The translations under genes and the position numbers were made by a program. DNA of 64,000 nucleotides. It comes from Escherichia phage pEC-M719-6WT.2. The notes below the pieces were generated by a model. The model was not told where the DNA came from. It worked only from the letters and a program-made list of their open reading frames with translations, and searched no databases. Shown piece by piece: positions 39,193-58,084 of this stretch. The stretch lies in sequence record OQ845958.1, one strand, 5' to 3'. Numbering within the stretch: the stretch's first letter is position 1; every line of letters starts with the position of its first letter.

Positions 39193-39939
39193 TTATGAAG
39201 TCACTGTTTGTTCGGCTACTAACAATGCAGAGGTTATTGTAAAGTTGCCGCCATTTGGCATAACAGTTATCGCTGTACCATTGGTTGCCATTGCCCCATC
39301 TTTATCAATGCTAAAGAACGTTGTAAAAGACAAAATATCTGTAGCATTTTCCGGACGATTTTGTATATAAGTGTTTCCGTTGGTTCCAACGAAATTTAAT
39401 GTTATACTTCGAGCTTGCGAGCTTCCTGTAAAATTACCAATAAGGTTGAGTTTAAATAATAGGCTTCTGTCTTGGTTATATGGCCACAACTTATCATCAG
39501 TGGTTCTAAAAAACGGAGATAGAGTCCCTGCTGTCGGCGGAATCCCCTTTAAAACACTAATTATGTTTGACGTCACACCATTAGTTAATAGAACGTTTAT
39601 ACCACTCCAAAACACCTCGGATTTTTCCCTCTTTCCTGCTGTATCAGTTAAAAAATCATCAACAGTTCCTGTATTTCCCAAGTCAAGCCATATCTGATAA
39701 GAAGACTTTCCATCCCCGCCTGGGTCTCCTTTTGGTCCTGGTACACCCGGTTCTCCTTTGGGACCAGGCGGACCCGGTATCTGAGTTTCCGAGCTGGACA
39801 TAGTTTGGAAAAAACGCTCTTTGCTATCTGTAGGAGTATTCGGCAACACCATAGTAGAACCAAACAAATACCAATTATTAGCCAAGGCAGCCTGGACTTT
39901 TTCATTGAGTTCATCAACAGTTCTTCCGGATAAAATCAT
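39193..39939 (-). CDS. collagen-like repeat protein (fibre-like), only minus-strand gene in the early region
   Basis: 248-aa ORF with GPPGPKGEPGVPGPKGDPGGDG (seven G-X-Y triplets); SD AAAGGAG. Confidence 0.7.
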   Translation of the reverse strand: MILSGRTVDELNEKVQAALANNWYLFGSTMVLPNTPTDSKERFFQTMSSSETQIPGPPGPKGEPGVPGPKGDPGGDGKSSYQIWLDLGNTGTVDDFLTDTAGKREKSEVFWSGINVLLTNGVTSNIISVLKGIPPTAGTLSPFFRTTDDKLWPYNQDRSLLFKLNLIGNFTGSSQARSITLNFVGTNGNTYIQNRPENATDILSFTTFFSIDKDGAMATNGTAITVMPNGGNFTITSALLVAEQTVTS

Positions 39940-42075: not shown

Positions 42076-42291
42076 ATGACTATTTTGATTATCAGCATTA
42101 TTTTTGGTTATCTTGTGATAGGTTTTATTACTACCCTGTTGCTCCACAAGTTTGATAGTCCCTACGAAAGTGGGGACGAGTATGATGCGGTGTTCACAAC
42201 ATTTTGCTGGCCTATATTCTGGGTAGTCGCTGTTATAATGTGTGTGGCCTGGCCTTTTGCTAAACTCTATAAAAAATTATTTGGATTATGA
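42076..42291 (+). CDS. small membrane protein
   Basis: 71 aa from ATG; two hydrophobic segments. Confidence 0.5.
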   Translation: MTILIISIIFGYLVIGFITTLLLHKFDSPYESGDEYDAVFTTFCWPIFWVVAVIMCVAWPFAKLYKKLFGL

Positions 42292-42292
42292 T

Positions 42293-43174
42293 ATGAACAT
42301 TAAAACACGTAAAGAATATTCTCGATTTGAACAGCGTGAAGGTCGTGCAACCCGTCTTATCGCGATGAATTCTCTGGTTAACTTTGGTAAAATCAAATCA
42401 GGTTCTGCCACCCAGGGGTATGGACAACGTATTGTAAGAATTAACTCTCTGAATGATTACTGCCGCCGCCCTGCGTTTTTGTTTGGTGCCACAGTTCGTA
42501 AGAGCATTAAGGAAATCCTGGCTGCAGGGCTTCGTATTCGCAAGGCTCCGGTTAACATCAAGAACTATAATTTTAACTCCAGTAACTTGATTATCAATAT
42601 CAAGAATGATGGTATACAGATTAAGTTCAAACCAACCACCAAGGGCGACGTTGCTCTTTGTGATACCTTTAAAGAGGTTATGGGTATCGCACTGTTTTAT
42701 ATGCGCCATGCTGTTGAAGCATACACGTTTGAAGAAGATACAAATTATATCCACCAAACGGAAAAATTCCTTAAAACTATAGTCATTGATATTAAATTAA
42801 CTAAAGAATATCTTTTGTCTTATGCACCTTATCAAGAGAAAAAGGAACCAGAAATGGCAGAACATATCCCTACTGCGACATATAACCCAGCAGTTACAGG
42901 TCAGTTTAAATCTTACGACCAGGCTAAAATTTCACCACTGGAAGTTAAAAATATGTATCAATGGAAAATCCAGCCAAACAGCTCTCTTGAAATCTTTAAC
43001 CCACCAATGAAGCCTATTGAGAGCTATCATGCTGATGCTATCCAGGAATCAGTCAACCGCTTAAACGGTCTGATTGAAGATGAGAAAAAGGGTATCCAGG
43101 ATGTTCTGAATCGCATCAAGAACATGGAAAAACAACGCAATAAATTGCAGGCGGCGATTTTAGCATTAAAATAA
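42293..43174 (+). CDS. hypothetical protein
   Basis: 293 aa from ATG (MNIKTRKEY...). Confidence 0.55.
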   Translation: MNIKTRKEYSRFEQREGRATRLIAMNSLVNFGKIKSGSATQGYGQRIVRINSLNDYCRRPAFLFGATVRKSIKEILAAGLRIRKAPVNIKNYNFNSSNLIINIKNDGIQIKFKPTTKGDVALCDTFKEVMGIALFYMRHAVEAYTFEEDTNYIHQTEKFLKTIVIDIKLTKEYLLSYAPYQEKKEPEMAEHIPTATYNPAVTGQFKSYDQAKISPLEVKNMYQWKIQPNSSLEIFNPPMKPIESYHADAIQESVNRLNGLIEDEKKGIQDVLNRIKNMEKQRNKLQAAILALK

Positions 43175-47088: not shown

Positions 47089-47562
47089 ATGTTGTTGACT
47101 GGCAAATTATACAAAGAAGAAAAACAAAAACTTTATGATGCACAAGCTGGTAAGTGTCCAATTTGCCACCGTGATTTGGACTCCGATGTTCAGGCCAACC
47201 ATCTTGACCATGACCACGAATTGAACGGGCCAAAAGCCGGTAAGGTTCGCGGGTTACTATGCAATCTGTGCAATGGGACAGAAGGACAAATGAAGCATAA
47301 GTTCAGCCGTTCGGGTCTGAAAAGTCGCGATGTTGACTACCTGGAATGGTTAGAGAGTTTGCTTGTCTATCTGAAATCTGATTATACCGAAAACAATATT
47401 CACCCCAATTTTGTAACAGACAAAGCCAAAGAGTTCGGTCGTCTGGGGAAAGAAGAAATGATTCGGGAAATGCTTTTGAATGGTATGACTTATAATGAAT
47501 CTGACACCAAAACACAATTAATGGCTTCATTTAAGAAGCAGCTTAGAAAGAGTTTAAAATGA
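47089..47562 (+). CDS. 49: recombination endonuclease VII (Holliday junction resolvase) gp49
   Basis: MLLTGKLYKEEKQK...NHLDHDHELNGPKAGKVRGLLCNLCN...SFKKQLRKSLK nearly identical to recalled T4 endo VII. Confidence 0.95.
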   Translation: MLLTGKLYKEEKQKLYDAQAGKCPICHRDLDSDVQANHLDHDHELNGPKAGKVRGLLCNLCNGTEGQMKHKFSRSGLKSRDVDYLEWLESLLVYLKSDYTENNIHPNFVTDKAKEFGRLGKEEMIREMLLNGMTYNESDTKTQLMASFKKQLRKSLK

Positions 47563-49376
47563 CAATTGAAAACGAAATTGAAGGATTGATTCATAAAACT
47601 AATAAAGACCTTTTAAACGAGAATGCTAATAAAGATTCTCGTGTTTTTCCAACTCAACGGGACCTTATGGCTGGTATTGTATCTAAACACATTGCCAAAA
47701 ATATGGTTGCGCCTTTTATTATGAAAGCACATGAAAGTGGAATTATTCATTTCCATGATATTGATTATTCCCCTGCTCTTCCATTTACTAATTGCTGTTT
47801 AGTAGATTTAAAAGGAATGCTTGAGAACGGATTTAAGCTTGGTAATGCACAGATTGAAACTCCTAAATCAATCGGTGTTGCTACTGCAATTATGGCACAA
47901 ATTACTGCACAGGTTGCTTCTCACCAATATGGCGGAACGACTTTTGCTAATGTAGACAAAGTATTTTCTCCTTATGTTAAACGTACATACGCAAAACATA
48001 TTGAAGATGCAGAAAAATGGCAAATCACTGATGCATTGAATTATGCCCAATCTAAAACAGAAAAAGACGTATACGATGCATTCCAAGCTTATGAATATGA
48101 AGTAAATACTCTCTTTAGTTCAAACGGACAAACGCCTTTTGTAACCATTACATTTGGTACGGGAACTGACTGGACTGAACGAATGATTCAGAAAGCAATT
48201 CTGAAAAATCGTATCAAAGGTCTTGGTCGCGATGGGATAACTCCTATTTTCCCTAAACTTGTTATGTTCGTTGAAGAAGGTGTTAATCTTTATAAAGACG
48301 ACCCGAACTATGATATTAAGCAGCTTGCTCTAGAGTGTGCAAGCAAAAGGATGTATCCTGATATTATTTCAGCTAAGAATAATAAAGCTATCACTGGTTC
48401 ATCTATTCCTGTTTCTCCAATGGGTTGCCGTAGTTTCTTGGGCGTATGGAAAGATTCGACTGGTAATGAAATTCTTGATGGACGTAATAATCTTGGTGTT
48501 GTAACACTGAATCTTCCTCGCATTGCGTTAGATTCTTATATTGGAACACAGTTCAATGAACAGAAATTTATCGAATTGTTCAATGAGCGAATGGATTTGT
48601 GTTTTGAAGCTTTGATGTGTAGAATTAATTCCTTAAAAGGAGTTAAAGCGACTGTTGCTCCTATTCTTTACCAAGAAGGTGCATTCGGGGTTCGTCTTAA
48701 ACCTGATGATGATATAATTGAGTTATTTAAAAACGGTAGAAGTTCAGTGTCTTTGGGATACATTGGTATTCACGAATTGAATATTCTTGCCGGTCGTGAT
48801 ATTGGGCAAGAAATTTTAACTAAAATGAATGCTCGTCTTAAGCAGTGGACTGAAAGAACCGGTTTTGCTTTTAGTTTGTATTCTACACCTGCTGAAAACC
48901 TTTGTTATCGCTTCTGTAAACTTGATACTGAAAAATATGGAAGTGTAAAGGATGTTACTGATAAAGGCTGGTACACTAATAGTTTCCATGTTTCAGTAGA
49001 AGAAAATATCACCCCGTTTGAAAAGATTTCCCGCGAAGCTCCATATCATTTCATTGCGACAGGTGGTCACATTTCTTATGTTGAACTTCCTGATATGAAA
49101 AATAACTTAAAAGGTCTTGAGGCTGTATGGGATTATGCTGCGCAACATTTAGATTATTTTGGTGTTAACATGCCAGTAGATAAATGTTTTACGTGTGGAA
49201 GTACCCATGAAATGACTCCTACTGAAAACGGATTTGTTTGTTCTATTTGTGGAGAAACTGACCCTAAAAAGATGAACACAATAAGAAGAACTTGTGGTTA
49301 TTTGGGAAATCCGAACGAACGCGGATTTAATCTCGGCAAAAATAAAGAAATCATGCATAGGGTTAAACACCAATGA
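47559..49376 (+). CDS. nrdD: anaerobic ribonucleoside-triphosphate reductase NrdD
   Basis: 605 aa as T4 NrdD; C-terminal CxxC...CxxC and glycyl-radical region; uninterrupted (no intron). Confidence 0.9.
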   Translation: MTIENEIEGLIHKTNKDLLNENANKDSRVFPTQRDLMAGIVSKHIAKNMVAPFIMKAHESGIIHFHDIDYSPALPFTNCCLVDLKGMLENGFKLGNAQIETPKSIGVATAIMAQITAQVASHQYGGTTFANVDKVFSPYVKRTYAKHIEDAEKWQITDALNYAQSKTEKDVYDAFQAYEYEVNTLFSSNGQTPFVTITFGTGTDWTERMIQKAILKNRIKGLGRDGITPIFPKLVMFVEEGVNLYKDDPNYDIKQLALECASKRMYPDIISAKNNKAITGSSIPVSPMGCRSFLGVWKDSTGNEILDGRNNLGVVTLNLPRIALDSYIGTQFNEQKFIELFNERMDLCFEALMCRINSLKGVKATVAPILYQEGAFGVRLKPDDDIIELFKNGRSSVSLGYIGIHELNILAGRDIGQEILTKMNARLKQWTERTGFAFSLYSTPAENLCYRFCKLDTEKYGSVKDVTDKGWYTNSFHVSVEENITPFEKISREAPYHFIATGGHISYVELPDMKNNLKGLEAVWDYAAQHLDYFGVNMPVDKCFTCGSTHEMTPTENGFVCSICGETDPKKMNTIRRTCGYLGNPNERGFNLGKNKEIMHRVKHQ

Positions 49377-52814: not shown

Positions 52815-53080
52815 TGCACATCAATCATACAATGATATCCGTCCAGGACCTGGGAACGTTTTGGGTGGATGAATTTATGAAAATAACATTCTTCCCGCAC
52901 GCAGAAGGGTATGGCTCTTGGGAGTCCCATATTAGTATGCTGAATGAAGGGCAATACCGCAACAAACATGACCGCCTGATGGAATTCATTAGCGATGCCG
53001 AGGTTATCCCTTATATTGACATTCATGAATTTAAGGCAATTATGGAGAAGGTCTTTCAGGCTTACTGTTTACTTCGCTAA
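52814..53080 (+). CDS. hypothetical protein
   Basis: 88-aa ORF. Confidence 0.5.
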   Translation: MHINHTMISVQDLGTFWVDEFMKITFFPHAEGYGSWESHISMLNEGQYRNKHDRLMEFISDAEVIPYIDIHEFKAIMEKVFQAYCLLR

Positions 53081-53105
53081 TGCTTTGTATTAAGGATGAT
53101 ATAAT
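53079..53105 (+). promoter_or_regulatory. candidate MotA-dependent middle promoter for gene 55
   Basis: TAATGCTTTGTA (MotA-box-like TGCTT) about 12 nt upstream of TATAAT, 24 nt before gene 55 ATG. Confidence 0.4.
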
Positions 53106-53128
53106 ATTCATATACTAAGCGAGGCGAT

Positions 53129-53686
53129 ATGAACGAAATTAAATTAACCAAGAATAACTATGTAAATAATAAAGAGCTTCTGAAAGCTATTTCGGAGTGG
53201 AAACAGAAGCTGAATGCGAACACCGACCCGAATAAAATTATTCGCCAGAACGATGTTATTGGTCTGGCAATTATGCTTATAGCCGAAGGTCTTAGCAAAC
53301 GTTTCAACTTCTCCGGATATACCCAATCCTGGAAGCAAGAAATGATTGCAGACGGAATTGAGGCCGCAATAAAAGGTCTTCATAACTTCGACGAAACAAA
53401 ATACGATAATCCACATGCTTACATAACAATGGCTTGCTTCAATGCTTTCGTTCAGCGTATCAAAAAAGAACGTAAAGAAATGGCAAAGAAATATAGCTAC
53501 TTCGTTCATAACGTGTATGATTCACGTGACGACGATATGGTGGCTCTGGCTGATGAAACATTTATCCAGGACATCTATGACAAAATGACACAGTACGAAT
53601 CCTCTTTAGTTAAAGCGCCAGGGTCTGATAAGAGCGCCAAAGATAAAGAAGGTGATTTGGATTTTTTATATGGAACATCAATTTGA
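53129..53686 (+). CDS. 55: late transcription sigma factor gp55
   Basis: ...[18 protein letters not shown]...[21 protein letters not shown]...[18 protein letters not shown]... closely matches recalled T4 gp55; 185 aa. Confidence 0.95.
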
Positions 53687-53903
53687 TATTACCGATTTTT
53701 TAGATAAAATCGAGGAAGACTTTACTGCGCTCCCATATTTCATTAAACTTTATCTGCGAGACATAAAAGGTCTTCCAATTGATATCGACCCTTTAAACGT
53801 CCGGAATCTGGAATTTACTTCGCCGGATAATAACGTTGATTACCGTTATCATGTGGATAATGCTAATCTATATTTTACAATTGAGTTAACTCCCAAGGAT
53901 TAA
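53670..53903 (+). CDS. hypothetical protein
   Basis: 77 aa from ATG inside ORF-track frame. Confidence 0.45.
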
Positions 53904-53904
53904 T

Positions 53905-54216
53905 ATGCAAGCTCCAGATATTTCTCAACTGACCGATAAGCAGATTGAAGAAGCACAGGAACGTCTCGAAGAAGCGAACGCGCTCGAAGCACAGAGTCAA
54001 GCGGCAAAGATTCTGAAAAAGAATGCTCGTGAAATTGCACGACTGAATAAGCATGCTCAAGGGGCAGTGCTGGAAAACAATTTTGAAGCATACAAATATG
54101 CTTTAGTTAAACTGCGTGGAATTTACCGCCAACCAGTTACGGAAGACCTGATTAAGTTGATGTGGGAAACTACTCGCAAACAAATTTGGGAAATCGTAAA
54201 TGGCATTAGTAAATAA
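53905..54216 (+). CDS. hypothetical protein
   Basis: 103-aa helical ORF. Confidence 0.5.
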   Translation: MQAPDISQLTDKQIEEAQERLEEANALEAQSQAAKILKKNAREIARLNKHAQGAVLENNFEAYKYALVKLRGIYRQPVTEDLIKLMWETTRKQIWEIVNGISK

Positions 54217-54400
54217 ACCTTTTAAACGGCTTCTTGTTGGAGCCGCTTTCAGACTTCGCTCATATGGTAATATCTGTATCAAGCAGACTGAAACCGAATA
54301 TAAAATGGTTGGGCAGTATTCCGATGAAATTTTTCGGATTGAGCCTGTAGCCAAGGTTTGGGTGGATTCACATCAACTTAAGAAGTGGTGGCAACGATGA
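54200..54400 (+). CDS. hypothetical protein
   Basis: 66-aa ORF. Confidence 0.45.
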   Translation: MALVNKPFKRLLVGAAFRLRSYGNICIKQTETEYKMVGQYSDEIFRIEPVAKVWVDSHQLKKWWQR

Positions 54401-54555
54401 TAACATGGACTGCTGGTTAATGAATGACGAATACGAAAAAGTTTAAGAGGTGTATTATGACTATTGATGATGTAGATATTCTTACTTCCGACGAATTAAA
54501 ACGATTGGGTAATATATTTCAAGACGAACATCCTGATTTTTAAGAGGTCATATGA

Positions 54556-54729
54556 ATGACGAATTCGACGGATTTTGATAAGATTAAATCTGATAAAAAT
54601 GAGATGATACTTCAATTTGAAGCCGCTCGTATTAAAGCAGAAAATGAAGGTACTATTAAATATAAGCCTATCAAGTTCAGGTCTTCTCATGAACCTCTGT
54701 ATGGTGTATTAATTGGAAAGGAAGCCTAG
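54556..54729 (+). CDS. small hypothetical protein (57 aa)
   Basis: ATG after SD AAGAGG; followed by terminator. Confidence 0.4.
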   Translation: MTNSTDFDKIKSDKNEMILQFEAARIKAENEGTIKYKPIKFRSSHEPLYGVLIGKEA

Positions 54730-54743
54730 TGCTTCCTTTTTTG
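54720..54743 (+). terminator. rho-independent terminator
   Basis: GGAAGC-ctagt-GCTTCC followed by TTTTTT. Confidence 0.7.
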
Positions 54744-54786
54744 CTTTATATTCGGGATGATAAAATGAACCAACTGAGGAGAGTAT

Positions 54787-54930
54787 ATGGTATTATTTTT
54801 AGGATATGTCGTGTTATTCATGGCATTCTACACATTCACACGAGCTTGTTGGATAGGATTCTTTTCTACTCCCGACGGGTTCATTTCAATAATTTTATTT
54901 TGCACTGCGATAACGGCGCTTGGCTTATGA
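54787..54930 (+). CDS. candidate 47-aa hydrophobic peptide coupled to gene 47
   Basis: ATG after SD GAGGAGAG; stop overlaps gene 47 ATG (ATGA); out of frame with the spurious upstream extension of gene 47. Confidence 0.35.
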   Translation: MVLFLGYVVLFMAFYTFTRACWIGFFSTPDGFISIILFCTAITALGL

Positions 54931-55946
54931 AAATTTTAAATTTAGGCGATTGGCACTTGGGTGTCAAAGCTGACGACCCATGGGCTCAAAACATTCAACG
55001 TGATGGTATTTTACAGGCGATTGCATATTCCAAAGCGAATGGAATTAAAGTCTGGATTCAATATGGTGATATTTTTGACGTCCGTAAGGCCGTAACGCAT
55101 AAGACAATGGAATTCAGCCGCGAGATTATGGAACTCCTTCGTGAAGCAGGAATTACTATGCACACGATAGTCGGGAACCATGACATGAATCTGAAGAATA
55201 AGATTCATCCTAATGCTATCACTGAACTCCTGAATAAGTATGACCATGTTAAAATCTACGACAAGCCAACGACTGTTGATTTTGACGGTTGTCAGATTGA
55301 TATGATTCCATGGATGTGTGACGAGAACGCGACTGACATTCATCAACACATCAAAACTTCTGGTGCCGAATATTGCATCGGTCACTGGGAATTAACCGGG
55401 TTTTATTTCTATAAAGGATTGAAATCCCATGGGCTTGAGCCCGATTTCCTTAAGAAGTACAAGCAAGTTTGGTCTGGGCACTTCCATACCATTTCGGAAG
55501 CTGCGAACGTTAAGTACATAGGGACACCATGGACATTAACAGCAGGTGATGAGAATGACCCGCGCGGATTCTGGGAATTTGATACAGAAACCGAAGAGAT
55601 GAAATTTATTCCGAATGAAACCACCTGGCATCGGAAGATTTTTTATCCAAACGAAACTATTAACTACGACGACTTCAAAGACTTATCAGTCCGTGTTATT
55701 GTAGAAAAAGTCGATAAAGACCTGACCAAGTTCGAATCTGAATTAGAAAAGCGTGTACATGAATTGCGTGTTGTCAATAAGGTTGATAACAGTGTTGATA
55801 CGACTGACTCCGAAGAAGAGTTAGACATAAAACGCTTAACTGATATGATGGCAGAATATATTGATGCATTACCTGACACCAATGAGAAAGAATCAAAAGC
55901 TCTTAAAGCATTGGCCAACAAATTATATCTTGAGGTGCAACCGTGA
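54927..55946 (+). CDS. 47: recombination endonuclease subunit gp47 (Mre11-like)
   Basis: MKILNLGDWHLGVKADD...IQYGDIFDVRK...GNHD... matches recalled T4 gp47; 339 aa from internal ATG. Confidence 0.9.
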   Translation: MKILNLGDWHLGVKADDPWAQNIQRDGILQAIAYSKANGIKVWIQYGDIFDVRKAVTHKTMEFSREIMELLREAGITMHTIVGNHDMNLKNKIHPNAITELLNKYDHVKIYDKPTTVDFDGCQIDMIPWMCDENATDIHQHIKTSGAEYCIGHWELTGFYFYKGLKSHGLEPDFLKKYKQVWSGHFHTISEAANVKYIGTPWTLTAGDENDPRGFWEFDTETEEMKFIPNETTWHRKIFYPNETINYDDFKDLSVRVIVEKVDKDLTKFESELEKRVHELRVVNKVDNSVDTTDSEEELDIKRLTDMMAEYIDALPDTNEKESKALKALANKLYLEVQP

Positions 55947-56206
55947 AACTTTATGATTTTAATGAAGCGGGTCTTGAACATATCCGCGAATGTGATGTGG
56001 TCGACGACGATAATCAACCGAATACTATTAAGTATTGGTTTGAAGCTATCACTGACCGGGAAACCGGTCAACTTATCAAAGTCTATGTAGTCACCGATTG
56101 GGCCGTGGAATTTAGCTTTAATGTAATGGTAGATGATACTCCAGAAACATTAATTCATATGGCTGAATCATGCATCAAGGATGCTTATAATGATGAAAAT
56201 GTATAA
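55943..56206 (+). CDS. hypothetical protein
   Basis: 87-aa ORF with GTG start overlapping gene 47 stop; start uncertain. Confidence 0.45.
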   Translation: MKLYDFNEAGLEHIRECDVVDDDNQPNTIKYWFEAITDRETGQLIKVYVVTDWAVEFSFNVMVDDTPETLIHMAESCIKDAYNDENV

Positions 56207-56405
56207 ACATGATTTTCATATTGGCGATGGCTGGTTCGGTAATGTAGAATGGGACGTGGATGGTTCTTGGTATACCGGAACTATGTATGTCACTTCTGAA
56301 TATTCTGAAGGTGTTTCATGGGCCATGGAACTTGACGACGTGTTTGCTTCTTCCGAAGAAATGCTAGAATATGCTGAACAAACAATTCGTGAGAACAATA
56401 CATGA
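56181..56405 (+). CDS. hypothetical acidic protein
   Basis: 74-aa ORF; several in-frame ATGs (56181, 56190, 56199). Confidence 0.45.
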   Translation: MLIMMKMYKHDFHIGDGWFGNVEWDVDGSWYTGTMYVTSEYSEGVSWAMELDDVFASSEEMLEYAEQTIRENNT

Positions 56406-58084
56406 AAACGTTTAAGCTAAAGAAAGTCATCTACAAAAATATTATGTCGGTTGGTGCTCAACCGATTACTGTTGAACTGGATAAAGTCCAAAAAACTCTG
56501 GTCACCGGCAAGAATGGTGCGGGTAAATCTACGTTCCTTGAAGCGGTTACCTTTGCTATGTTCGGTAAGCCTTTCCGTGATGTAAAGAAAGGCCAGTTGA
56601 TTAACTCGAGCAACAAAAAAGATATGCTCGTTGAATTGTGGATGGAATATGATGGAAAAGAATACTATATCAAACGCGGGCAAAAACCCAATGTTTTTGA
56701 AATCTCTTGTGGCGGTAAACGTCTTGATGAATCTGCCAGCAGTAAAGACTTCCAAGCGGAATTTGAACAGCTTATCGGAATGTCATACGCCAGTTTCAAA
56801 CAAATTGTCGTACTCGGCACAGCTGGATATACCCCTTTTATGGGCCTATCCACTCCTGCCAGAAGAAAGCTTGTCGAAGACCTTTTAGAGGTTTCTGTAC
56901 TGGCCGATATGGATAAGCTGAACAAATCTCTTATCCGCGAAGTCAATAGCCAAATCCAGGTAATGGATGTGCAGCATGATGGTATCGTTCAACAGATTAA
57001 AATCTATCAGGACAACGAAGACCGTCAAAGAAAATTGTCAGGTGATAATCTGTTGCGACTGCAAACGATGTATGATGAACTTGCTACAGAAGCACGTGGA
57101 ATCAAGGCAACTATCGAAGAAGCAACAACAAGACTGACCGAGATAATTTTGGGAGAAGACCCCGAGCACGAACTCACAAAGTTAAAGCAGGAATCATTCC
57201 TGATTAAATCGAAGATTGACGATTACCGAAAGGTTGTTGGTCTGTACGAGAAGGGCGGTTGTTGTCAGACTTGTGCCAGTCAGTTACATCCAGGAGACCC
57301 TATTGTCGCCAGGATTGAGTCAAAGATTGAAGAATGTAATGCATCAGCTGATAAGCATAAAGCTCGCCAGAATGCTGTTCAAGAGCAATTTGATGCGTAT
57401 ACCAAGGCAAGACAAAACCAGCGTACAATAGCTCAAGACATTCAAACTAAGAAACAAACCTTAGTCCAGACTGTCGAAAAAGCTAAAAAGGTTAAAGCAT
57501 TAATTGAGCAGGCCAAGTCAGAATTCATTGACCACGCAGCAGACATTAAAATGCTTCAAGACCAGCTTGATAAAATAGTCAAACAGAAATCTGACCTTGT
57601 GATGGAAAAATATCAACGTGGTATCCTAACGGATATGTTGAAAGATTCTGGTATCAAGGGCGCGATTATTAAGAAATATATTCCCATCTTTAATAAGCAG
57701 ATAAACGCTTATCTTAAAGTTATGGAAGCTGATTATAGCTTTACGTTAGATGAAGAGTTCAACGAAACGATTAAATCTCGTGGGCGTGAAGACTTTAGCT
57801 ATGCATCATTTAGCCAGGGTGAAAAAGCTCGTATAGATATTGCATTGCTGTTTACATGGCGCGATATTGCGGCAAAAGTATCTGGTGTTAATATTAACAC
57901 ATTGATTCTGGATGAAGTTTTTGACTCGGCCACAGATGTAGAGGGTGTTAAAGCAATTGCTACCATCCTGAACAAATTGGAAGACACCAACATCTTTATC
58001 ATCAGTCACCGAGACCATGACCCGGAAGCATACGGACAACATCTCCAGATGAAAAAAGTTGGTCGATTCACTGTTATGGAATAA
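56402..58084 (+). CDS. 46: recombination endonuclease subunit gp46 (Rad50/SbcC-like ATPase)
   Basis: Walker A GKNGAGKST, central coiled coil with CxxC hook, C-terminal signature/Walker B (LILDEVFDS); 560 aa. Confidence 0.9.
   Translation: MKTFKLKKVIYKNIMSVGAQPITVELDKVQKTLVTGKNGAGKSTFLEAVTFAMFGKPFRDVKKGQLINSSNKKDMLVELWMEYDGKEYYIKRGQKPNVFEISCGGKRLDESASSKDFQAEFEQLIGMSYASFKQIVVLGTAGYTPFMGLSTPARRKLVEDLLEVSVLADMDKLNKSLIREVNSQIQVMDVQHDGIVQQIKIYQDNEDRQRKLSGDNLLRLQTMYDELATEARGIKATIEEATTRLTEIILGEDPEHELTKLKQESFLIKSKIDDYRKVVGLYEKGGCCQTCASQLHPGDPIVARIESKIEECNASADKHKARQNAVQEQFDAYTKARQNQRTIAQDIQTKKQTLVQTVEKAKKVKALIEQAKSEFIDHAADIKMLQDQLDKIVKQKSDLVMEKYQRGILTDMLKDSGIKGAIIKKYIPIFNKQINAYLKVMEADYSFTLDEEFNETIKSRGREDFSYASFSQGEKARIDIALLFTWRDIAAKVSGVNINTLILDEVFDSATDVEGVKAIATILNKLEDTNIFIISHRDHDPEAYGQHLQMKKVGRFTVME

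Follow-up and report, generated by a model that had tools for sequence, protein, structure and literature searches.

Gene 55-47 interval of T4-like phages

In phage T4 the gene for alpha-glucosyltransferase (a-gt) lies between genes 55 and 47, in the order 55, a-gt.5, a-gt.4, a-gt.3, a-gt.2, mobB, a-gt, 47.1, 47, and the pair mobB and a-gt is flanked on each side by a copy of a stem-loop plus GCTTTATA unit; b-gt lies between uvsX and gene 42. The DNA of phage RB69 (genus Mosigvirus) contains arabinosylated 5-hydroxycytosine, and phages of the genus Dhakavirus are predicted to do likewise from the gene cluster between uvsX and gene 43 (PMC13326640). Phages of the genus Gaprivervirus are without gene 42, an absence already published in 2021 and 2025, keep the dCTPase (gene 56), Alc, DenA, and DenB, and have been suggested to contain a non-canonical base (PMC8056088, PMC12115623). 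Here we analyzed a 64-kb stretch of Escherichia phage pEC-M719-6WT.2 (OQ845958.1), referred to below as the window, and specifically its interval from gp55 to gp47 (53686-54927), which an earlier reading of the letters alone (the sequence-only reading) had singled out for its missing a-gt. The best joint explanation, which we regard as very probable, is that the interval represents the short form of the 55-47 module standard in Tevenvirinae and that the DNA of this phage is not glycosylated.

By nucleotide sequence comparison the window phage is a Gaprivervirus (Tevenvirinae), all its best matches being so classified. Over 53000-56500 (3.5 kb) it is 99.1% identical to phages EAWsc9 and ECML-359 and 96.2% identical to phage SP18. 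The locus genes of these three relatives are as in the window and were already deposited; the interval itself is already known, since it is annotated in dozens of relatives and in SP18, where the 2010 annotation names a-gt.5, a-gt.4, a-gt.3, and a-gt.2. Relatedness along the window is a mosaic, with 99.1% identity around genes 55-46 vs. 95-97% in 20000-44999 (25 kb; 95.4 and 96.9% to EAWsc9/ECML-359 at a coverage of 96-98%, with several pieces uncovered).

All genes of the module are on the plus strand. Gene 55 (53129-53686) encodes the late sigma factor gp55 of 185 aa, which in tblastn is 80% identical to T4 gp55 over 182 aa and is annotated at the matching position in SP18 and EAWsc9. Its end overlaps by 17 nt with the a-gt.5 homolog (53670-53903; 77 aa; Pfam DUF5491, E 2e-12; phrog_1169, E 5e-29), which shows 39% identity to T4 a-gt.5 (tblastn, E 2e-12) and is named a-gt.5 in SP18; the start used here is the ATG annotated in SP18, and an alternative open reading frame (ORF) of 83 aa begins at a GTG at 53652. 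Next come the a-gt.4 homolog (53905-54216; 103 aa; Pfam DUF2654, E 9e-25; phrog_951), 43% identical to its T4 counterpart (tblastn, E 2e-22), and the a-gt.3 homolog (54200-54400; 66 aa; phrog_1648, E 6e-29), with 43% identity to T4 a-gt.3 (E 7e-14). The a-gt.2 homolog (54556-54729; 57 aa; Pfam DUF5486, E 8e-19; phrog_2140) is 52% identical to T4 a-gt.2 (tblastn, E 1e-17). The hydrophobic 47.1 homolog (54787-54930; 47 aa; phrog_6693, E 4e-30) matches T4 47.1 at 76% identity over 46 aa (E 2e-20) and carries no annotation in SP18 or EAWsc9; its stop codon overlaps the start of gene 47 (ATGA). Gene 47 (54927-55946) encodes an SbcD/Mre11-like recombination nuclease subunit of 339 aa (Pfam Metallophos), 72% identical to T4 gp47 over 338 aa (tblastn). 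The Tevenvirinae 55-47 module is therefore complete, with a-gt.5, a-gt.4, a-gt.3, a-gt.2, and 47.1 co-linear (E 2e-12 to 2e-22 in tblastn with the T4 proteins). These small ORFs are not chance ORFs, because each belongs to a conserved Pfam/PHROG family (E 1e-12 to 1e-40) and corresponds to a named T4 gene; the PHROG families of the five small homologs have no assigned function.

From gene 55 through a-gt.5 to a-gt.2, 47.1, and 47, the order and strand are identical to those of T4, at 39-80% aa identity. The window differs from T4 in that it is without the 2.1-kb cassette of mobB, a homing endonuclease gene, and a-gt; it also has one terminator/promoter unit where T4 has two, and an extra 28-codon ORF between a-gt.3 and a-gt.2. 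T4 a-gt (400 aa) used as a tblastn query gave no match in the window at E < 0.1, and tblastn with T4 a-gt and mobB detected no degraded copy of either in the interval. The spacer between a-gt.2 and 47.1 is 57 nt long and is occupied by the terminator and a predicted promoter. The sequence-only reading had placed a-gt of T4 between genes 55 and 47 and had described a 1.2-kb interval here with only small ORFs, of about 57-103 aa, and a terminator. The T4 gene order and our annotation agree with both statements, the two quoted lengths being those of a-gt.2 and a-gt.4. It had further presented the small ORFs as standing where T4 has a-gt; a-gt is indeed missing, but the ORFs are T4's own a-gt.2 to a-gt.5 and 47.1.

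The intrinsic terminator (54715-54741, plus strand) consists of an 11-pair stem, a 5-nt loop, and a T-run (-12.9 kcal/mol, z = -2.8), and the stop codon of a-gt.2 sits in its loop. It is directly followed by a predicted MotA-type middle promoter (54740-54766, plus strand) made up of the Mot box TTTGCTTTA (54740-54748), a 12-nt spacer, and the -10 element TAAAAT (54761-54766). Stem-loops directly followed by a promoter have been described in T4-type phages as PmSL units, together with the Mot box (PMC4122927). The features of the PmSL/PeSL class found here are a stem-loop, a TGCTT Mot box, about 12 nt, a -10 element, and a breakpoint in gene content, so the terminator and Mot box probably form a terminator-promoter unit of the PmSL type; SP18, JS98, and RB69 share this conserved unit. 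Scanning the interval for sigma-70 promoters yielded 6 sites vs. 7.3 expected in shuffled sequence, i.e., no excess, and with its 12-nt spacer the predicted promoter fits the MotA middle class rather than sigma-70. Transcription of the five small co-oriented genes behind gene 55 (a-gt.5, a-gt.4, a-gt.3, the 28-codon ORF, and a-gt.2) would then stop at the intrinsic terminator, and the middle promoter with its MotA box would most likely restart transcription into 47.1-47-46.2-46.1-46.

How the short interval arose can be read in two directions. Most simply, a-gt is an insertion specific to Tequatrovirus and was not lost here, because the T4 cassette holds a homing endonuclease and has duplicated, recombination-prone flanks. 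We consider it improbable that the short interval is instead derived by secondary loss, i.e., that a-gt once stood between a-gt.2 and 47.1 in the ancestor of Gaprivervirus, Dhakavirus, and Mosigvirus and was then cleanly deleted by recombination between the two units. The duplicated terminator and GCTTTATA units around mobB and a-gt in T4 would permit a deletion as readily as an insertion, and PeSL/PmSL units have been described as mediating both (PMC2839356, PMC4122927). Against a loss, however, the junction sequence of the short form with its single unit is shared by three genera (RB69 of Mosigvirus, JS98 of Dhakavirus, and Gaprivervirus), mobB in the T4 cassette suggests mobile DNA, and no remnant of a-gt was found by tblastn in the interval.

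The extra 28-codon ORF (MTIDDVDILTSDELKRLGNIFQDEHPDF; 54458-54543, plus strand; 39 codons with the ATG at 54424 as start) lies downstream of a strong Shine-Dalgarno sequence, AAGAGGTG. It is kept in SP18, is annotated neither there nor in EAWsc9, and is not found in JS98 or T4; on this comparison it is specific to Gaprivervirus. Pfam and PHROG searches with the ORF gave no match. It is bounded by two direct repeats, of which ATGAATGACGAAT(A/T)CGA stands at 54420 and again at 54552 and TTTAAGAGGT at 54442 and again at 54539; this suggests that the region 54420-54568 is a small repeat-mediated insertion in which the start of a-gt.2 has been duplicated.

Cytosine-modification genes outside the 55-47 locus

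The a-gt-less interval by itself does not predict the state of the DNA. JS98 has the a-gt-less 55-47 order including 47.1, and RB69 has the same a-gt-less layout with 47.1 not annotated; in both, the junction sequence is as in the window. Unlike Gaprivervirus, RB69 and JS98 carry an arabosylation cluster between uvsX and gene 43, with genes for a 5hodCMP synthase, arabinosyltransferase(s), and arabinose-nucleotide metabolism. JS98 has its five genes of the arabosylation pathway, gp038-gp042, in 4.2 kb between uvsX and a lipoprotein gene upstream of imm, and they are the counterparts of those in RB69. RB69 has in addition a second transferase beside rIIA; Gaprivervirus has none of all these genes. 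The DNA of the Dhakavirus VR5 is glycosylated according to a restriction study (PMC6326788). We concluded that the 55-47 locus is not diagnostic of glycosylation status, because RB69 and JS98 share the a-gt-less interval and yet encode arabosylation elsewhere.

The search for modification genes was extended beyond the locus. The window ends within gene 43, and the uvsX-43 region was read from the relatives; the sequences searched were the window, EAWsc9 outside the part matching the window, and 146 kb of SP18 (1-100 kb and 125-170.6 kb). The tblastn queries were T4 a-gt, b-gt, and gp42, RB69 p003, p045-p053, and p055, and JS98 gp038-gp042, and the search did detect its positive controls (gp43, uvsX, and JS98 gp043). 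In these sequences we found no significant homolog of a-gt (the best hit, E 0.05 over 66 aa, is noise) and no match to b-gt. The arabosylation queries (the arabinosyltransferases RB69 p003 and p046:47, the nucleotide kinase, the phosphatase, the NTP-transferase/kinase, and the arabinose-5-P isomerase) were likewise negative, with E > 0.03 throughout. With the gene 42/5hodCMP synthase queries (T4 gp42, RB69 p048, and JS98 gp039) the only match was td, at E 3e-4 or weaker, and its product has Leu143 and Asp169, not the residue that, next to Asp177, marks a hydroxymethylase (Asp/Glu143) or a 5hodCMP synthase (Asn169). This agrees with the absence of gene 42 published for the genus (PMC8056088, PMC12115623).

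The gene order of the relatives gives the same picture. In SP18, EAWsc9, VR7, and others, the gene directly behind uvsX encodes a lipoprotein; a small ORF comes next, then imm and gene 43, and neither gene 42 nor b-gt is present there (uvsX-imm junction at SP18 L003:21866-24096 and EAWsc9 L007:35904-38134, to be compared with JS98 L011:20694-27245). A 2-kb query spanning uvsX, the lipoprotein gene, imm, and gp43 matched 32 records at a coverage of at least 80%, and in all full-length carriers uvsX adjoins the imm region. On the gene content of these genomes, the whole cytosine-modification cassette known from JS98, of the sister genus Dhakavirus, is absent from Gapriverviruses. We considered whether the lipoprotein gene (SP18 gp045, EAWsc9 AJENGE_00770), which occupies the former site of 42/b-gt, encodes a replacement enzyme, and rejected this; it has no Pfam domain, and its homolog JS98 gp043 coexists with the arabosylation cluster.

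Published data on the genus point in the same direction. By restriction analysis, in part after treatment with T4 b-gt, Gordeeva et al. describe the DNA of VR5 and T4 as glycosylated, that of T4 147 as hydroxymethylated, and that of VR7 as containing modified cytosines that are unglycosylated; in the same paper VR7 is restricted by BREX as fully as sugar-free T4 (PMC6326788). VR7 is a Gaprivervirus with the 42-less uvsX junction. A hidden route to glycosylation, through a transferase unrelated to a-gt, b-gt, or the RB69 arabinosyltransferases and encoded among the ORFs of no known function or in the approximately 105 kb outside the window, appears very unlikely to us. Such ORFs are many, and over 20000-44999 the window is 3-5% divergent from every record, with some stretches uncovered. 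Against this, tblastn was negative, and a Pfam scan of 30 larger unknown-function ORFs from the window and EAWsc9 detected no glycosyltransferase or methyltransferase domain; its yield was DUFs, RegB, a nucleotidyltransferase (RlaP family, nrdC.11), Gp38, MotB-like, Ig-like, and tail-needle-knob domains. The enzymes that would form the acceptor (gene 42 and 5hodCMP synthase) are absent as well, no sugar-nucleotide pathway was found, and VR7 DNA is reported as unglycosylated and the phage as BREX-sensitive like sugar-free T4. From the genomes and the published VR7 result we concluded that Gaprivervirus DNA is not glycosylated.

The sequence-only reading had argued from the interval that the phage does not glucosylate its DNA by the T4 route, at least not from this locus. 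The absence of a-gt in tblastn and the 57-nt spacer support this for the locus; the broader conclusion holds as well, but on the strength of the rest of the genome, the interval being uninformative in view of RB69 and JS98. The glycosyltransferase or gene 42 that the same reading had proposed to look for elsewhere was found in neither the window nor EAWsc9 nor the 146 kb of SP18.

Td and a possible route to 5-methylcytosine

The gene matched by the gp42-type queries lies outside the window and offers a lead to the modified cytosine. In these Gaprivervirus genomes td is the only thymidylate synthase (TS) homolog and stands beside frd; the gene is at 47318-48178 in EAWsc9 (PQ341120, minus strand; L008:37318-38178), at 144065-144925 in SP18, and at 142489-143349 in VR7. 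Gaprivervirus Td belongs to Pfam Thymidylat_synt and can be aligned over its full length with T4 Td (PDB 1TIS; Asn177); it keeps the ThyA-like residues Leu143, Cys146, His147, Gln165, and Asp169, and has Asp at the position of Asn177 of Escherichia coli ThyA (GLPFDIGSY vs. GLPFNIASY). Asp177 was found in the Td of EAWsc9, SP18, VR7, and the P8-type. The substitution N177D in TS is cited as a switch from dUMP to dCMP that gives a dCMP methylase (cited in PMC8670742, PMC13326640). Compared with ordinary T4-type Td, the Gaprivervirus protein shows about 65-70% identity, with Asp177 as essentially the sole change in the active site.

The closest described parallel is phage Xp12, in which 5-methylcytosine (5mC) replaces cytosine. 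Its TS homolog, like Gaprivervirus Td, has Asp177 and the catalytic Cys146; it is encoded beside a dCMP deaminase and a dihydrofolate reductase (DHFR), and over the first 50 kb of that genome (63.8 kb in all) no other TS homolog is annotated. Xp12 differs in being a siphovirus (Mesyanzhinovviridae) with a diverged enzyme (Asn143, Pro147, and Leu165). As judged by alignment, the Td of the window's relatives has the TS fold, the catalytic Cys, and Asp177 of an Xp12-type dCMP C5-methyltransferase.

The distribution of Asp177 is narrow among near relatives. In the 120 closest Td clusters it occurs only in four of Gaprivervirus type and in one from a metagenomic T4-like contig; Asn stands there in the remaining 115, among them Dhakavirus Bp7, a Tequatrovirus, and S16, and the Mosigvirus-type Td is likewise without Asp177. 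The Td of Acinetobacter phage 133 also has Asp177, while those of Acj9, Morttis, and Kimel have Asn177; of 118 related Td clusters, 9 have Asp. Phage 133 is reported to be without gene 42 and to keep DenB, Alc, and dCTPase (PMC8056088). Further metagenomic T4-like Td sequences with Asp177 fall in clusters P0122-P0124, P0163, P0171, P0173, P0176, and P0235, and a Logan contig from SRR24146912 (L015, 5.4 kb; Td P0067) has an Asp177 Td in the context frd.2-frd.1-frd-td. The variant thus seems to recur in uncultured T4-like lineages, and we propose independent origins of the switch in Acinetobacter phage 133 and several of the metagenomic T4-like lineages.

We lean, by a modest margin of belief, toward the reading that in Gapriverviruses, including the window phage, 5mC replaces cytosine and is made at the nucleotide level by their own Td, turned into a dCMP methylase by one natural change from Asn177 to Asp. 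In the proposed route gp56 dCTPase would convert dCTP to dCMP, and Td(Asp177) would methylate dCMP reductively with methylenetetrahydrofolate (CH2-THF), the folate being recycled by Frd. The 5-methyl-dCMP would then be phosphorylated and 5-methyl-dCTP incorporated instead of dCTP, and Alc, DenA, and DenB would spare the 5mC DNA. As sources of dTMP, Cd could deaminate 5-methyl-dCMP, or host ThyA could supply it. In Xp12, dTMP is reportedly made by deamination of 5-methyl-dCMP.

The competing explanation is ordinary cytosine: Asp177 would be neutral or would confer dual specificity, with Td still making dTMP, gp56 would be chiefly a dUTPase, and divergence or tolerance would account for Alc and DenB. 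In its favor, Td is otherwise a textbook ThyA that aligns end to end with 1TIS and keeps His147 and Gln165, growth on K-12 hosts is recorded, and the literature searched holds no published chemistry for Gaprivervirus. We nevertheless rate it as unlikely. VR7 DNA is reported to have modified cytosines (PMC6326788). BL21 is without Dcm, and VR7, according to the same source, was grown on BL21, so the host cannot explain them. Among the named phages compared, moreover, Asp177 occurs, apart from the 5mC phage Xp12, only in lineages without gene 42, and the dC-exclusion set of 56, alc, denB, and denA is retained.

Several points weigh against the account given here of the locus and of the DNA chemistry. 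The window is identical to no deposited record, and the rest of its genome was inferred from relatives in the genus. The direction of change at the 55-47 locus, gain vs. loss of a-gt, rests on parsimony and the duplicated flanks, and the functions of the promoter and terminator are predictions at the level of consensus. For the state of VR7 DNA the evidence comes from a figure legend, and the literature searched, which does not include the original VR7, VR20, and SP18 papers, contains no base identity, enzymology, or nucleoside analysis for a Gaprivervirus. Gaprivervirus Td retains His147 and Gln165, which are Pro and Leu in Xp12, and may retain activity on dUMP. Finally, at least one Gaprivervirus is listed with E. 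coli K-12 MG1655 as its host, and McrA, McrBC, and Mrr of K-12 attack 5mC DNA; the 5mC reading therefore also needs an anti-restriction function.

Other features of the window and significance

Two further features lie away from the 55-47 locus. An ORF of 248 aa (39193-39939, minus strand) matches Pfam Phage_tail_NK, the Sf6-type tail needle knob, at E 5e-32 and contains a collagen-like repeat. It is annotated as a tail-NK domain protein in EAWsc9, and it lies on the opposite strand in the early nrdC region, which is odd in both position and orientation for a tail-tip-like protein. At 42242-43174 the window has one DUF7235 ORF of 310 aa vs. two ORFs in SP18 (gp092 and gp093); a frameshift in SP18 would explain this, or else a fusion in the window phage.

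The interval adds nothing new by itself, and its value is as an entry to the question of DNA chemistry. Gapriverviruses are phage-therapy candidates whose DNA chemistry has been called unknown (PMC8056088, PMC12115623), and this chemistry bears on the predicted risk of transduction. It also decides which host defenses the phages meet: BREX fully restricts VR7, Type IV enzymes that recognize 5mC should target Gapriverviruses, and sugar-dependent enzymes of the GmrSD type may not act on them. The combination of Asp at position 177 of Td and no gene 42 provides a sequence marker for finding similar phages. If the 5mC reading is true, Gapriverviruses would be the first T4-like phages with Xp12-type chemistry, which would explain the loss of gene 42 and the glycosylation genes while the dCTPase, Alc, DenA, and DenB were kept.

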